Shown piece by piece: positions 2,968 through 8,697 of a stretch of DNA of 36,460 bases. The DNA is taken from the IMG/VR virus record IMGVR_UViG_2534681674_000020, positions 1-36,460 of that record; one strand, 5' to 3'. Under the pieces are notes generated by a model. That model was not told the DNA's origin, made no database searches, and saw nothing but the letters and a program-made list of their open reading frames with translations. Both the position numbers and the translations under genes were made by a program. Numbering within the stretch: the first letter of the stretch is position 1; each line of letters begins with the position of its first letter. This DNA comes from a virus. Lineage: Duplodnaviria > Heunggongvirae > Uroviricota > Caudoviricetes.

Positions 2968-3327
2968 ATGCTCATAGATTTGGTTTTACCTTACCCGCCG
3001 ACGGTGAACACTTACTGGCGACGCCGTGGCAGCACATATTTTATCTCGGAGGAGGGAAAGCGTTATCGCCGGGCTGTGGCGCTTATTGTTCGCCAGCAGC
3101 GGCTGAAATTAAGCCTGTCCGGAAGGCTGGCGATAAAGATTATTGCAGAGCCACCGGATAAGCGCCGTCGTGATCTGGACAATATCCTGAAAGCACCGCT
3201 GGATGCGCTGACGCATGCCGGACTTCTCATAGACGACGAGCAGTTTGATGAAATCAATATTGTGCGCGGTCAGCTCGTTTCTGGTGGGCGGCTGGGCGTG
3301 AAGATTTACAAAATTGAAAGTGAGTGA
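2968..3327 (+). CDS. rusA: Holliday junction resolvase RusA
   Basis: 119-aa product with the conserved RRRDLDN core and overall collinearity with E. coli RusA. SD AAAGAGGTGA upstream. Confidence 0.85.
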   Translation: MLIDLVLPYPPTVNTYWRRRGSTYFISEEGKRYRRAVALIVRQQRLKLSLSGRLAIKIIAEPPDKRRRDLDNILKAPLDALTHAGLLIDDEQFDEINIVRGQLVSGGRLGVKIYKIESE

Positions 3328-3890
3328 GCATAAATATGATATACCCGGAAATTACAGGCAAAAGCGGTGAGCATTTACGCCTGAAAACGCTGGAAAGTGT
3401 CTGGATCCAGGGGAAACTGCGTATGTGGGGGCGTTGGTCGTATATTGGCGACGGTAAGACGGGAAATATGTTCAACCAATTACTGACCTCTAAAAAGCTG
3501 ACAAAAACGGCAATTAACGAGGCGCTCCGGAGGATGAAAAAAGCGGGTCTGGACAAACCTGAACTTGAGGCTTTTTTGCGGGATATGATCAACGGCAATC
3601 AAAAAAGCTGGCTGGCACATTGTACCGATTCAGAGGCGTTAATAATCGACAGGGTTATTGGTGAAGTACTGGCAGGTTATCCCGGGCTGCTCAATGTTCT
3701 GAGTCAGCGTTATGTGGGGCGGGGGATGACTAAGCGCAAAATGGCTGAACTGCTGAATGATGCACATCCGGAATGGAGTTTAAGAACCTGTGAAAGACGC
3801 ATTGAGCATTGGCTAAAGGTGGCAGAATTTATTTTGTACAAACCAATGGTTATGGCTTTTGGTATAGAGAAAAAAGTTATTGCTTTTTGA
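3324..3890 (+). CDS. Late-gene antitermination protein Q-like
   Basis: 188-aa ORF directly after rusA and directly before a tR'-like terminator and the late genes. Called by synteny with lambdoid phages; the Q family was not verified by motif. Start may be GTG 3324 or ATG 3336. Confidence 0.55.
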   Translation: MSINMIYPEITGKSGEHLRLKTLESVWIQGKLRMWGRWSYIGDGKTGNMFNQLLTSKKLTKTAINEALRRMKKAGLDKPELEAFLRDMINGNQKSWLAHCTDSEALIIDRVIGEVLAGYPGLLNVLSQRYVGRGMTKRKMAELLNDAHPEWSLRTCERRIEHWLKVAEFILYKPMVMAFGIEKKVIAF

Positions 3891-3968
3891 CGTAAAAACT
3901 GCTTCAATTCCGGTAAGCTTCGCAAAGCTGTACCGCGAGGCGAATAGCAGACATGGACATTTGAAAGA

Positions 3969-3991
3969 GCCCGCTTTTTGCGGGTTTTTTT
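3969..3991 (+). terminator. tR'-like rho-independent terminator downstream of Q
   Basis: Hairpin gcccgc-ttttt-gcgggt followed by a run of seven T. Position is typical of the lambdoid late-operon terminator that Q antiterminates. Confidence 0.65.
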
Positions 3992-4113
3992 ATGACTGAA
4001 AAACGGCACGGGGCGTTAAATGCGCTGGTGGTTGCGAATACCGGTCTTTCTGCTTACTGGCTTTTTGGACAAGAGTTATTGGTATGTCACGTTAACCAAA
4101 AGGGAAAAAAGAC

Positions 4114-4311
4114 ATGCTAAAACAGCAGGATATGACAGAAACCGCCAGAGTGGTGTTTAATGAATTAAGCGTTACCGACCCGGCGACAGTCGGGGAGATT
4201 GCGCAGAATACTTACCTTTCACGCGAACGCTGCCAGTTAATACTGACCCAGCTTGTTATGGCGGGTCTGGCAGACTATCAGTTCGGTTGTTACAGACGCC
4301 TTCCGCAGTGA
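4114..4311 (+). CDS. Small winged-helix protein, PapI/FaeA-like (65 aa)
   Basis: ORF of 65 aa. The central segment (VTDPATVGEIAQNTYLSRERCQLILTQLVMAGL) resembles the PapI/FaeA HTH pattern by eye. Lies immediately upstream of a DNA methyltransferase. Confidence 0.45.
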   Translation: MLKQQDMTETARVVFNELSVTDPATVGEIAQNTYLSRERCQLILTQLVMAGLADYQFGCYRRLPQ

Positions 4312-4461
4312 AGGCTTTTTTATTTGTGGTAAATGGGCGGCTGGTGGGTGTTAGGGGCACCTACCAGCCATCTGCTCATGCGTTGGGTTCACAAGCAAAC
4401 CTCAGGCCCACTGCTTTGCGCAAAAGCAGAATGAGCCTATCAGAGACAGGCTTAATGATCC

Positions 4462-5538
4462 ATGCTTAATACTGTAAAAATATCCAGTTGTGAGTTAATC
4501 AACGCTGATTGCCTGGAATTTATCCAGACCTTACCGGAAAACTCTGTCGATCTGATAGTCACAGACCCGCCATACTTTAAAGTGAAGCCCGAGGGCTGGG
4601 ATAACCAGTGGAAGGGCGACGATGATTACCTGAAGTGGCTGGACCAGTGTCTGGCGCAGTTCTGGCGGGTGCTGAAACCTGCCGGAAGTCTTTACCTGTT
4701 CTGTGACCATCGCCTGGCATCTGACATTGAAATCATGATGCGTGAACGCTTCAATGTGCTGAACCATATTATCTGGGCGAAGCCGTCCGGACGCTGGAAC
4801 GGGTGCAACAAGGAAAGCCTGCGGGCGTATTTTCCGGCCACAGAACGCATTCTGTTCGCGGAACATTATCAGGGGCCGTATCGTCCGAAAGATGATGGCG
4901 ATGAGGCGAAGGGCAGGGCACTGAAACAGCATGTGATGGCCCCGCTGATTTCTTACTTTCGTGATGCGCGTGCTGCTCTTGGGATAACAGCAAAACAGAT
5001 TGCAGATGCCACAGGAAAGAAAAACATGGTGTCGCACTGGTTCAGTGCCAGTCAGTGGCAGCTACCGAACGAAAGCGATTATCTGAAATTACAGTCGCTG
5101 TTTGCCCGGGTGGCAGAAGAGAAACATCAGCGGGGAGAACTGGAAAAGTCCCATTACCAACTGGTCAGCACATACAGTGAGCTGAACCGACAGTACATGG
5201 AACTGCTGAGTGAATATAAAAATTTGCGGCGGTATTTCGGTGTGACGGTGCAGGTGCCGTACACCGATGTGTGGACGCATAAACCGGTGCAGTACTATCC
5301 AGGGAAACATCCGTGCGAAAAACCGGCAGAAATGCTGCGGCAGATAATCTGCGCGAGCAGTCGTCCGGGTGACCTGGTGGCGGATTTTTTCATGGGTTCT
5401 GGCTCAACCATAAAAGCAGCTATGGCGCTCGGGCGTCGTGCAACTGGTGTTGAACTGGAGGCAGAACGTTTTGCGCAGACCGTTAAGGAGATTAGTCACA
5501 TCCTTACATGCTCAATTGATGACGGGAAGGATGAATAA
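4462..5538 (+). CDS. Orphan DNA methyltransferase (beta-class amino-MTase; N6-adenine or N4-cytosine)
   Basis: 358-aa product with a DPPY catalytic motif near the N-terminus and an FxGxG AdoMet-binding motif (DFFMGSGST) near the C-terminus. No cognate restriction gene is visible. Confidence 0.85.
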   Translation: MLNTVKISSCELINADCLEFIQTLPENSVDLIVTDPPYFKVKPEGWDNQWKGDDDYLKWLDQCLAQFWRVLKPAGSLYLFCDHRLASDIEIMMRERFNVLNHIIWAKPSGRWNGCNKESLRAYFPATERILFAEHYQGPYRPKDDGDEAKGRALKQHVMAPLISYFRDARAALGITAKQIADATGKKNMVSHWFSASQWQLPNESDYLKLQSLFARVAEEKHQRGELEKSHYQLVSTYSELNRQYMELLSEYKNLRRYFGVTVQVPYTDVWTHKPVQYYPGKHPCEKPAEMLRQIICASSRPGDLVADFFMGSGSTIKAAMALGRRATGVELEAERFAQTVKEISHILTCSIDDGKDE

Positions 5539-6760
5539 AGATATGGTCAGTTCAGGCTGTGAAGCAAGTAGACAGATAAGGCTGCAATAAAAACTGACAA
5601 TAGTAAAATAGCTTTTTCCCAGGTAGTCATGAATACGATCTCTTAAAGCGCCCGCTGATACCAGCGGGCAATACATACTGGCATTAATGTTAAGTTCAGG
5701 GATAATTCATCGTATTTTGTGGTACGACGCTATCAATATTAATAAAAAGTATTTTTCATGTAAAATTTCTGTTTTTTTGATCTGATTCTCGTTTCCTGGG
5801 TTATGATGTTGTTGTGAACCATGCTGTTGAATGATAATGTTCGGGTATAAAATTGTTGCTGATATGTAGCGCAGTGAGCAGGTGGTATTTCTGTTGCTGA
5901 GTGTACGGATACAGTGCTTCCCTCCCTCAGCGGGGGGGCAGGTGTGCTGTGGTTTTAGAGACACCGGAAACGAGAATGATGCGGGTTTGCTGGTGCCGGG
6001 ATAGAGTCGCCGGAGGTCATGACATAGAGCAAAAAAGGAATGTGCATGCAAATACACACCTCTTCGGAGAGCTCTTCTTTATATGGATGAGCCTCAAGGT
6101 CAATAGTTTATCTGTTATGTATTCATATGTTGTTACTTATATAATCCATACGGGCATATCATCAGTACACACATACTATTATGGCATTTTATTTTTGTTT
6201 TAACTGAATTCCCGGGGCACTCTTTTTGATTTCTGATAAGGAACCAGAATTTTCTGTTAAATGGTGTCACGTTGTAAATGGTTAATGGAAGCAGCTTATT
6301 ATCCATAATCACACCTGAGTTAACAGGTGTGAGAATACTTCCGGGTGGCAGGAACACATCTGACTGATACCAGATTATCAACTTTATTTTACACCATACA
6401 GTTGAAAACGTTATTCCGCTTGATGGGCATATCACTGTGTCAATAACTATCCATTCCATCTTTTAACCTTCTCGGTACACATTGCTTTCGATTGTTTTGC
6501 TAAAAATCATAGTCAATAAATCAGTGTAACTCATTGAAAAAGATCGTCTTCTTTGTCTTCCTGGGGTTTTCTTTTCTAATTTTGTATCACTTTGGTTCAA
6601 GTTGTTTCATTTTTTTGTAATACAAATTAGCAGGATGAGCGGGAATATAAAAAAATCGGATGTTTTTGTAATGGATATTATTTTTTTGTAAAATAATGTA
6701 TTTTTATTTAAATCTCTATCAGAAAAGAATTTATTGTTCCTTTATATGGTGGAAAAGGTC

Positions 6761-8697
6761 ATGGTATTTAAACACTACGATGTGGTCAGGGCGGCGTCGC
6801 CGTCAGATCTTGCGGAAAAGCTGACACAAAAACTGAAGGAGGGGTGGCAGCCATTTGGCAGCCCGGTGGCCATCACGCCTTATACTCTGATGCAGGCCAT
6901 TGCGGCGGAAGGTGATGTCACCACACCTGTGTTGGTGAAGCCGTCGGATGGAGAAGGCACAGTAATCAGCGCCACCAGAGACCCGGAGTATTACTTTGTT
7001 GTGGTTCTGGCGGGGCAGTCAAACAGCATGGCATATGGTGAAGGCCTTCCGCTGCCGGAGACATATGACCGTCCGGACCCGCGTATTAAGCAGCTGGCGC
7101 GCCGCAGTACGGTGACACCGGGCGGTGCAGCATGCAAATATAACGACATCATTCCGGCGGACCATTGTCTGCATGATGTGCAGGACATGAGCCGCCTTAA
7201 CCATCCGAAAGCGGACCTGTCAAAGGGGCAGTACGGAACCGTGGGGCAGGGGCTGCATATCGCCAAAAAACTGCTGCCGTTTATACCGGCGAATGCGGGC
7301 ATTCTGCTGGTTCCGTGCTGTCGTGGTGGTTCAGCGTTCACCACCGGAGCTGATGGCACATACAGTGACGCGAGTGGTGCTTCGGAGAATTCAACCCGCT
7401 GGGGTGTGGACAAGCCGCTGTATAAGGACCTTATCGGTCGAACAAAAGCAGCACTGAAGAAGAACCCGAAAAATGTGCTGCTTGCCGTGGTGTGGATGCA
7501 GGGGGAATTTGATTTTGGCGGTACGCCGGCAAATCACGCAGCACAGTTTGGTGCGCTGGTTGATAAATTCCGTGCAGACCTGGCGGATATGGCAGGTCAG
7601 TGCGTCGGTGGATCTGCTGACGGTGTTCCCTGGATATGCGGGGACACGACGTATTTCTGGAAGCAGAAGAACGAATCCTCGTACCAGACGGTGTACGGCA
7701 GCTACAAAAACAAACGGAAAAGAATATCCATTTCGTACCGTTCATGACGGATGAGAACGGGGTGAATGTGCCGACGAACAAACCGGAAGAAGACCCGGAC
7801 ATTCCGGGTATCGGATATTACGGTTCGAAATGGCGTGACAGCTCAGCCACCTGGACGTCACAGGACAGGGCGAGCCATTTCAGCGCCTGGGCACGCCGCG
7901 GGATTATTTCCGACCGTCTGGCAACGGCGATTTTGCGCCATGCGGGAGGAGTGGCGCTAAACGCGGGGGCATCATCGACAGTATCAGAGGTGCGCCCGTC
8001 ATCGCCTTCCGGTGCAGAAGCCACAGGCGTCACAACACTGCTCTCTTACCTTGCCAGCGAGTCAGAGGGAAGCCTGAAAGTACAGGGATGGTCAGCCAGT
8101 GGCGGCAGGGCAGAAGTGGTCAGCGATGCGGAGGGAACCGGAGGTAAGGCAGTGAAGCTGACCAAGGAAGCCGGTAAAAGCAGCTGGGTGCTGGAGTACG
8201 CCGCGGGCAACGGTGCGGCTCTGTTACAGAAAGGGGGGCAGATTCGCTGCCGCTTTAAGGTTTCGGGAGCGCTGGCTGCGAACCAGTATGTTATGGCGTT
8301 TTACTGGCCGGTATCTTCACTGCCACAGGGCGTTGCCCTGACCGGAGACGGGGGGAATAACCTGCTGGCAGCGTTCTACATCCAGACAGATGCAAAAGAC
8401 CTGAATGTGATGTACCACAATGCGAAAGTGGCGACAAACAACCTGAAACTGGGAAGCTTTGGCGCATTTGATAACGAATGGCATGCGCTGGCTTTCCGCT
8501 TTGCCGGGAATAACAGCCTTCAGGTGACGCCGGTTATTGATGGTCAGGATGGTACACCGTTCACGCTGACGCAGTCACCGGTCAGTGCCTTTGCGGCGGA
8601 TAAACTGCATGTGACAGACATTACCAGAGGTGCGACTTACCCGGTACTGATAGACAGCATTGCGGTGGAAGTGAACAGCACAGACACTGCGGCATGA
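6761..8697 (+). pseudogene. nanS-p: Prophage sialate O-acetylesterase NanS-p-like (DUF1737 + SGNH/SASA esterase), disrupted by a frameshift
   Basis: Two overlapping ORFs (6734..7747 in frame 2, 7636..8697 in frame 1) together form one approximately 645-aa protein. N-terminus MVFKHYDVVRAASPSDLAEKL is DUF1737-like. Frame change lies within 7630-7747, probably in the A-rich tract around 7705-7716. SD GGAAAAGG before ATG 6761. Confidence 0.7.

Follow-up and report, generated by a model that had tools for sequence, protein, structure and literature searches.

The 36,460-nucleotide (nt) stretch of DNA analyzed here, positions 1 to 36,460 of the IMG/VR virus record IMGVR_UViG_2534681674_000020 (hereafter the window), is a degraded lambdoid prophage of Shiga-toxigenic Escherichia coli that appears decayed; positions 3300-7000 are 100% identical to E. 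coli 2013C-4974 in a nucleotide comparison. Our subject is a cassette on the plus strand of the window that is composed of an open reading frame (ORF) for a stand-alone winged-helix protein of 65 residues (4114-4311), a structured RNA leader of 136 nt (4329-4464) and the gene of an orphan N6-adenine DNA methyltransferase (4462-5538). An earlier sequence-only reading of this stretch had proposed the two ORFs as a pair at the head of the Q-dependent late transcript, just after Q and tR'. Both ORFs exist at these positions, and the placement is borne out by a Q-like gene at 3336-3890 and a hairpin with a T-run at 3970-3991. The small ORF starts with ATG and corresponds to RefSeq WP_000917749.1 ('hypothetical protein') in the identical sequence of strain 2013C-4974; the methyltransferase ORF likewise starts with ATG, encodes 358 residues and corresponds in the same strain to WP_000935499.1 ('DNA-methyltransferase').

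The methyltransferase has the motif order of the beta class, in which DPPY is N-terminal and FxGxG is C-terminal (TDPPYF at residues 34-39, FMGSG at residues 310-314). It matches PF01555 (N6_N4_Mtase) with E=5.9e-43 and the PADLOC model MTase_II with E=1.5e-160, and its nearest solved structures are those of beta-class enzymes, M.RsrI, CcrM and M.MboIIA among them. The enzyme is identical to M.EcoGII in 320/350 residues (~91%; the M.EcoGII sequence was taken from supplement file 5 of PMC11551740 as machine-read text, in which reading errors may account for a few mismatches), and on this similarity we assign it to the known and characterized M.EcoGII family. Neither the RefSeq annotation of the flanking regions nor a search of the other large ORFs against Pfam shows a restriction endonuclease in the window. 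Motifs, Pfam match, flanks and scan thus agree with the earlier description of the enzyme as an orphan with DPPY and FxGxG motifs.

M.EcoGII, also of the beta class, is a non-specific adenine methyltransferase of 349 residues that is encoded by a prophage of E. coli O104:H4. The lysogen does not express this enzyme, which is deleterious once produced and probably serves for overcoming host restriction; it methylates RNA as well and is fully active alone in recombinant form (PMC5778455). The same work names phage 1720a-02 as the carrier of a very similar enzyme, and makes no mention of the upstream small gene or the leader, the word 'upstream' being absent from its text (PMC5778455). Phage 1720a-02 is among the best nucleotide matches to the cassette region (91.9%) and has the same small gene, leader and methyltransferase. 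The window enzyme shares with M.EcoGII/M.EcoGI of E. coli O104:H4 C227-11 the beta-class motif order, the prophage location and the orphan status in addition to the high identity, and differs from M.EcoGII by a private exchange at residue 82 and a variant C-terminal tail. Residue 82 (window 4705-4707; LYLFC-D-HRLAS) is Asp in the window and Gly in 227/229 homologues of the fetched loci; the glycine is kept even in copies 99% identical to the window enzyme, and G82D may have lowered or abolished activity in a prophage that is decaying. Nucleotide homology to other phages stops at ~5480, ~55 nt ahead of the methyltransferase stop codon, resulting in a different C-terminal tail of ~18 residues (…AERFAQTVKEISHILTCSIDDGKDE), and the segment ~5480-5538 looks like a recombination junction within the gene. 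Separately, residues 167-195 (window 4960-5046), in the central, presumed target-recognition domain, give a weak match to the Xre-type helix-turn-helix (HTH) family HTH_3 (E=0.021).

The 65-residue protein falls into phrog_331 (unknown function) and carries the NCBI labels 'TrmB family regulator' or 'hypothetical'. Judged from its codons, the small ORF is a real gene under protein-level purifying selection: the helix-3 block R-C-Q-L-I-L-T-Q-L-x-M-A-G-L is invariant as protein and synonymously variable in its codons across 20 loci. The AlphaFold2 model is a canonical winged helix with the order H1-strand-H2-H3-wing and a predicted local distance difference test score (pLDDT) of 88. The basic residues R39, R61 and R62 are conserved in helix 3 and the wing, the variable parts of the protein are the H1-H2 and wing regions, and in charge the family ranges from acidic to neutral, its median isoelectric point (pI) being 5.6 compared to 8.8 for PapI. 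The family is small, with only 86 matching clusters in an exhaustive hidden Markov model (HMM) search of 1.84 billion representative proteins. Foldseek searches of the PDB with the model returned generic winged helices, all with E>2e-3; among them were N-terminal domains of O-methyltransferases, IclR and MarR regulators, MotA and a SelB-SECIS domain. Below threshold, the strongest Pfam signals come from DprA_WH and TrmB; NCBIfam and PADLOC gave zero matches for the small protein, and sequence searches of the PDB with the protein and its family profile gave nothing meaningful.

The structured leader of the methyltransferase gene

The spacer between the two genes (150 nt in the window) is more conserved than the small protein, and compensatory changes in it are obvious. 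A long hairpin, P1 (4333-4350/4357-4379), and a second domain comprising the helices P2, P3 (4405-4411/4431-4437) and P4 (4412-4417/4423-4428) were first predicted model-free, by RNAalifold on a plain MAFFT alignment. P2 (4387-4391/4456-4460 and 4393-4396/4450-4453) closes the second domain by pairing GGUCA-c-AAGC with GCUU-ac-UGAUC; its 3' arm ends two bases before the methyltransferase AUG, and the helix buries nt -2 to -12 before this codon. The conserved structure of the leader, therefore, includes the bases directly preceding the AUG. The same helices are present in the minimum-energy fold of the window's own sequence (-72 kcal/mol, z = -3.86), and a covariance model built from 25 representatives scores the window at 120.7 bits at 4329-4464.

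The leader alignments are fitted to the model and their sequences are related, which inflates the following covariation statistics: among 66 distinct leader sequences, 93.9% of cells are paired and 14 pairs have double changes, and in an alignment of 34 sequences (A12) that was extended with N15, phiKO2, a PY54-like Yersinia phage, Serratia phage OS31, Hafnia phage yong2, the Vibrio phages VHML, Valp1 and ST2-1pr and Aeromonas phage PhAER-1, 91.9% of cells are paired and 30/39 pairs have double compensatory changes. As controls for A12, none of 500 column shuffles reached the observed values, and sliding the partners by 1-3 columns reduced pairing to 28-47%. The covariation extends to both parts of P2, with double changes in 4/4 pairs of helix 4 and in 4/5 pairs of helix 3 of this alignment. 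Around the covarying helices the unpaired segments GAAC-CA-AGGCC-CA and GAGCCUAUCA are highly conserved, Vibrio phages included. G-U pairs indicate the strand only weakly (91.9% versus 87.7%), and the orientation of the leader rests on its context. Rfam 15 has no gathering-level match in the leader; at E<=10 there were only chance-level matches to P26 (17 bits, gathering threshold 36), MEG8 and REN-SRE.

Methyltransferase genes that carry the leader lack a well-placed Shine-Dalgarno sequence. The start of the gene has a peculiarity of its own: TGATCYATG (window 4456-4464), invariant in all aligned loci, contains a GATC and, in frame with the ATG and two codons ahead of it, a TGA; this invariance is explained by the pairing of UGAUC with GGUCA in P2. 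Three other candidates were rejected. A leader peptide, AUG-GGC-GGC-UGG-UGG (MGGWW, with tandem Trp codons), is conserved neither in frame nor in peptide (e.g. in Proteus), and the covarying P1 stem explains its sequence. Translation that continues in frame beyond the small ORF and enters the methyltransferase gene is incompatible with spacer lengths that across loci are not multiples of three. For a pseudoknot between the P1 loop and CCUAYCA, the register found by eye is inconsistent between lineages, and we do not claim it.

Linkage of the small gene, the leader and the methyltransferase gene

In a survey using one genome per species, 31 loci encode a relative of the small protein. At 29 of these, ranging from Escherichia to Proteus and Plesiomonas, the next gene on the same strand encodes an M.EcoGII-like methyltransferase (58-98% identity); the two exceptions are a contig end and a locus in which the methyltransferase gene is deleted. 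In 28 loci with both genes intact, the spacer measures 142-154 nt. Five particularly divergent small proteins (38-49% identity for those with readable neighbors) were also looked up, with an antiterminator gene before and an N6_N4 methyltransferase gene after them in four cases and a contig too short to tell in the fifth. Thus, the two genes form a conserved pair, in line with the pairing inferred by the sequence-only reading, and they are associated far beyond chance. The antiterminators that precede the cassette belong to at least four Pfam families across the data set and, therefore, the cassette is a mosaic module that is independent of the type of Q.

A pattern scan of IMG/VR and the genome loci gave 155 occurrences of the leader, of which 140 have both genes and five have the small gene only (four contig ends and one loss of the methyltransferase gene). 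Starting from the enzyme, a regular expression found the leader upstream of 216/218 methyltransferase homologues with enough upstream sequence, and one of the two misses (L024) was recovered by the covariance model. The locus search with the methyltransferase alignment gave close relatives only (at least 89% identity), and distant ones were reached by tblastn on phage records. Among 12 such divergent phages, the covariance model detects the leader upstream of the methyltransferase gene in 11, at 29-71 bits: it abuts the start codon in N15-like phages, OS31, yong2 and VHML-type phages, and in Valp1, ST2-1pr and PhAER-1 ~130 nt separate its end from the annotated start. The remaining phage is phiO18P, in which the methyltransferase gene is squeezed between the holin and endolysin genes. 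In total, the leader is tied to the methyltransferase and not to the small gene, and the small gene depends one-way on the methyltransferase, with the reverse failing.

N15 and phiKO2 provide a variation on this arrangement. Their gp51 genes (706-933 of locus L236 and 703-930 of locus L237, respectively) encode 75-residue winged-helix proteins and lie just upstream of a late promoter, a terminator, the leader and gp52, a methyltransferase gene of the M.EcoGII family that is followed by a holin gene. The order parallels that of the cassette, but in N15 the winged-helix gene precedes the late promoter instead of following the terminator, and the proteins are only remotely similar (25% identity); for N15 gp51, hhalign (90%) makes remote homology to the small protein probable. 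The position of gp51 beside the N15 methyltransferase module adds to the case for a functional linkage. In SfV, N15, phiKO2, OS31, VHML and Valp1 the cassette adjoins holin/lysin genes, and in Shiga toxin (Stx) phages its slot is just before the tRNAs and stx.

At three IMG/VR loci the place of the small gene directly upstream of the leader is taken by another gene with its own hairpin after it. This gene encodes 131-132 residues (…GICFEFIERRRKEITGLVDTIGN; L053, L122, L137), although L137 has only an 81-residue relative with the same C-terminus; a PHROG search with the 131-residue protein gave no match.

Terminators, DNA box and neighboring genes

The left boundary of the conserved module is a tR'-like intrinsic terminator on the plus strand (3970-3991), read from the sequence as CCCGC-TTTTT-GCGGG plus T7. 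It is kept in 23/23 aligned loci, with compensatory stem changes, and homology to Stx phages starts at ~3980. The promoter types upstream of it vary among loci and include the lambda-like TATATTTGACATTAACGATGGG. For tR' it is established elsewhere that it ends pR' transcripts unless Q acts. Some lineages have an additional terminator-like hairpin with a T-rich tail (4024-4045 in the window) between tR' and the DNA box described below.

Upstream of the small gene lies a conserved box, CTTGCTG-N13-CAGAGTTAYNTGTRTG, the window version of which is CTTACTG...CAAGAGTTATTGGTATGTCAC (4053-4090, plus strand). Its sequence and its distance to the ATG are fixed in every small-gene locus, the most divergent ones included, and the box is gone wherever the small gene is gone. 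Its geometry, in which 17 nt separate a -35-like TTGCTG from a -10-like TAYNTG and the Shine-Dalgarno sequence comes after a leader of ~35 nt, makes it look like a promoter or operator of the small gene. RNAalifold gave no conserved RNA structure in the box region upstream of the small ORF and, therefore, we treat the box as a DNA element. At its other end the small gene runs into a terminator-like hairpin, P0 (4298-4325, plus strand; GCCTTC-CGCAGT-GAAGGC and a T-run), which overlaps the stop codon, and the stem of which covaries among Enterobacteriaceae. A hairpin in the position of P0 is retained in most loci that lack the small gene. Box, small gene and P0 terminator look like a self-contained unit that was inserted between tR' and the leader.

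From the left, the gene order is hokD/sok, rem, a DUF968 gene, RusA, the Q-like gene, the 65-residue ORF and the methyltransferase gene. The Q-like late antiterminator gene (3336-3890, plus strand) is of the DUF1133 type (PF06576, E=3.7e-105; PF06530 Phage_antitermQ, 33.1 bits with a cut-off of 26; phrog_753, 'anti-termination protein Q-like') and is a RefSeq coding sequence; it is the context of the cassette and lies outside the mobile module. Onward from the methyltransferase gene follow iraM on the opposite strand, a frameshifted DUF1737/SASA/DUF6645 esterase gene, lysis genes interrupted by an IS3 insertion element, lambda-like head and tail genes and NleC. iraM (6133-6459, minus strand) is the sole long ORF in 5540-6700; it encodes an RpoS-stabilizing anti-adaptor and occupies the slot that in Stx phages is used by tRNAs and stx. 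In Stx phages, the pR'-tR' small RNA StxS up-regulates RpoS (PMC7547250).

The NanS-p-esterase-like DUF1737/SASA/DUF6645 gene (6734-8697) is split by a frameshift into the overlapping ORFs 6734-7747 and 7636-8697 and is a RefSeq pseudogene, and the lysis region is broken up by the IS3 element. Rfam matches in the window are sok antitoxin RNA at 767-941, with hokD, and the ALIL frameshift pseudoknot of an IS3-family element at 10834-10950. At the far end of the prophage, past the tail-fiber genes, lies a gene for an NleC-type type-III effector (34854-35840; Peptidase_M85, E=1.4e-112).

A model for the cassette and its alternatives

Combining the structure of the locus with the distribution of its parts, we suggest, at a probability of about 0.6, that it represents a late-expressed anti-restriction cassette of temperate phages in which terminators and an RNA leader act as gates on a toxic enzyme and in which the winged-helix protein is an accessory regulator. 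In this model, a non-specific N6-adenine methyltransferase would be made late in lytic growth, and the progeny DNA would be methylated and in that way escape restriction in the next host. The anatomy of the locus suggests a gate at the level of transcription, in that the methyltransferase gene lies behind the terminators at 3970-3991 and 4298-4325 and only Q-modified polymerase would reach it. A gate at the level of translation would be provided by the observed P2 helix together with the missing well-placed Shine-Dalgarno sequence, which would make output intrinsically low or conditional. The winged-helix protein, the gene of which is linked to that of the enzyme, may tune the expression or the activity of the methyltransferase via the box DNA, the leader RNA or the enzyme itself. 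In most lambdoid versions, the small gene is inserted with its own promoter-like box between the two terminators; it occurs in the cassette only, which can dispense with it.

This design resembles the com-mom genes of phage Mu, in which the gene of a small protein lies upstream of that of a late toxic enzyme and the start of the enzyme gene is buried in an mRNA helix. Both systems place a protein of ~62-65 residues upstream of a toxic, late, adenine-modifying anti-restriction enzyme, and the burial of the start of the modification gene in an mRNA helix has its counterpart here in the covariation-supported P2. Com is a zinc finger and Mom is not an S-adenosylmethionine (SAM)-dependent methyltransferase, whereas the small protein described here is a winged helix without the four-cysteine motif and the enzyme is a PF01555 methyltransferase, and there is no homology between the systems. 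The cassette also differs from com-mom in that the genes in the window do not overlap, the leader is a multi-helix structure of 136 nt and the small protein is dispensable in many relatives. A second parallel is provided by the controller (C) proteins of restriction-modification systems, which are likewise small proteins of a DNA-binding type encoded upstream of a modification-related gene and behind a conserved upstream box. However, C proteins have an Xre-type HTH, bind a palindromic C-box and control a restriction gene, whereas the cassette has a winged helix, a non-palindromic box and no restriction enzyme.

Several observations weigh against our model. What goes beyond the anatomy of the cassette we infer. 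The pI of the small-protein family, acidic to neutral, is atypical for a nucleic-acid binder, the box departs far from the sigma-70 consensus and is below the threshold of the promoter scan, and a pR' promoter was not found in 3891-3969 of the window. The window copy of the enzyme may be inactive, given G82D at an otherwise invariant glycine and the decayed state of the prophage. The small gene is absent from 10 of the 155 leader loci, which have the leader and the methyltransferase gene only, and from the cassette of all N15-like, Vibrio and Aeromonas phages examined; given these many relatives, the small protein is not required for expression of the methyltransferase and is no obligatory activator. 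Conversely, three loci (L250, L251 and L254) have both genes separated by a short spacer with only a terminator or a P1-like hairpin and an ordinary AAGGA Shine-Dalgarno sequence and, therefore, the full leader is not universal. The contrast between this short-spacer sub-lineage and the leader-bearing genes suggests that the leader limits or conditions translation of the methyltransferase.

The sequence-only reading had taken the 65-residue protein for a PapI/FaeA-type co-regulator that with the methyltransferase forms a methylation-dependent, phase-variable epigenetic switch, a proposal that we now consider highly improbable. Both PapI and the small protein are small stand-alone winged helices, an adenine methyltransferase adjoins the small gene, and hhalign matches the small-protein family weakly to PapI (66% probability, 18% identity). 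This likeness is at the level of a fold that is common to hundreds of families, and neither the FaeA HMM nor hhalign nor Foldseek supports membership. None of 26 family members (the window protein and 25 relatives) matches the FaeA/PapI HMM PF04703 at E<=1, whereas PapI, the sequence of which was verified against PDB 2HTJ and which served as positive control, matches it at 110 bits (E=6.5e-32), and 2HTJ is not within the top 50 Foldseek matches of the small protein. The small-protein family also differs from PapI in its acidic charge and in its genomic context: all loci examined show Q, a terminator, the small gene, the methyltransferase gene and lysis or cargo genes, and none has a fimbrial-operon, Lrp or GATC-box context. 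An M.EcoGII-type enzyme acts on adenine whatever the surrounding sequence, so that a Pap-like switch would lack a defined site; nor can methylation patterns that are heritable and site-specific be reconciled with an enzyme that has no sequence specificity and stays silent in lysogens. Taken together, the Pfam scan with its control, hhalign and the fold search rule out membership in PapI/FaeA. That reading had itself named what would speak against it, namely a well-known Dam-like methyltransferase with no dependence on the upstream gene and a small ORF that lacks HTH homology and expression; the enzyme family is indeed well characterized (as M.EcoGII, not Dam) and has relatives without the upstream gene, but the small ORF does encode a winged helix. 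We suggest replacing the labels 'PapI/FaeA-like' and 'TrmB family regulator' by 'M.EcoGII-cassette winged-helix protein, function unknown'. The proposal of a late-expressed epigenetic or anti-restriction module thus survives in its anti-restriction part, which agrees with the work on M.EcoGII (PMC5778455), and is unsupported with respect to a PapI-type switch.

Three further explanations assign different roles to the small protein or the leader. The small gene could be an independent 'moron' consisting of the box promoter, the gene and the P0 terminator, which is expressed in the lysogen for an unrelated purpose and occupies a permissive slot. That the promoter-like box travels with the gene, that a terminator-like hairpin follows it, that leader and methyltransferase function without it in many phages and that the variability of H1-H2 and of the wing hints at a rapidly evolving interaction surface would all fit this idea; we find it unlikely, given that true morons usually occur in varied contexts, whereas the small gene is never found away from an M.EcoGII-like methyltransferase in the 31 loci and the four divergent ones that can be judged, bar a contig end, a too-short contig and one deletion, and that its remote homologue likewise adjoins the N15 methyltransferase module. 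Alternatively, the small protein may act on the enzyme, either as an antitoxin-like inhibitor or as a partner that restrains or targets the promiscuous methyltransferase. The pI, the toxicity of the methyltransferase, the strict one-way need of the small gene for it and the top structural matches, namely the MotA activation domain and those winged-helix domains of SAM-dependent methyltransferases that serve in protein-protein contacts, point in this direction; yet R39, R61 and R62 in helix 3 and the wing fit nucleic-acid binding, recombinant M.EcoGII is fully active alone and the interaction itself is conjectural, and we regard such a partnership as quite unlikely. Finally, the leader could be a self-contained sensor, i.e. 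a riboswitch that responds to SAM, S-adenosylhomocysteine (SAH) or another small molecule, or an autoregulatory site that is bound or methylated by the methyltransferase, with the small protein uninvolved. This would agree with the conserved unpaired nucleotides around the covarying helices, even in Vibrio phages, with the occurrence of the leader without the small gene and with the methylation of RNA by M.EcoGII; the leader has, however, no similarity to SAM/SAH riboswitches or other Rfam families, and a passive translation-damping structure or an RNase III processing site would explain the same data, which leaves a sensor rather doubtful.

A more far-reaching extension of our model of a gated anti-restriction cassette, which we put forward as tentative, is that the leader represents a new class of cis-regulatory RNA for promiscuous temperate-phage adenine methyltransferases and that it is an active switch rather than a passive damper, operated by the winged-helix protein as an RNA-binding analogue of Com, by N6-methylation of conserved unpaired adenines by the methyltransferase, or by a metabolite. 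If this were true, it would amount to feedback control over a toxic DNA/RNA-modifying enzyme.

M.EcoGII and related enzymes have found wide use as reagents in the footprinting of chromatin and RNA, and they provide the clearest example of phage enzymes overcoming numerous restriction systems simultaneously. To our knowledge, it has not been described how phages silence such a toxic enzyme in lysogens and dose it during lytic growth. The leader RNA and the winged-helix gene that is restricted to the cassette also appear to be undescribed, as they are absent from Rfam and from the papers on M.EcoGII and on the Stx late region that could be searched here. The cassette offers three testable regulatory parts, i.e. 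two successive terminators, a structured leader with deep conservation and no Rfam family, and a cassette-restricted winged-helix protein with its conserved DNA box. Given that in many Shiga-toxin phages the cassette heads the late transcript that carries stx, modulators of read-through or RNA processing at this position could affect toxin expression.

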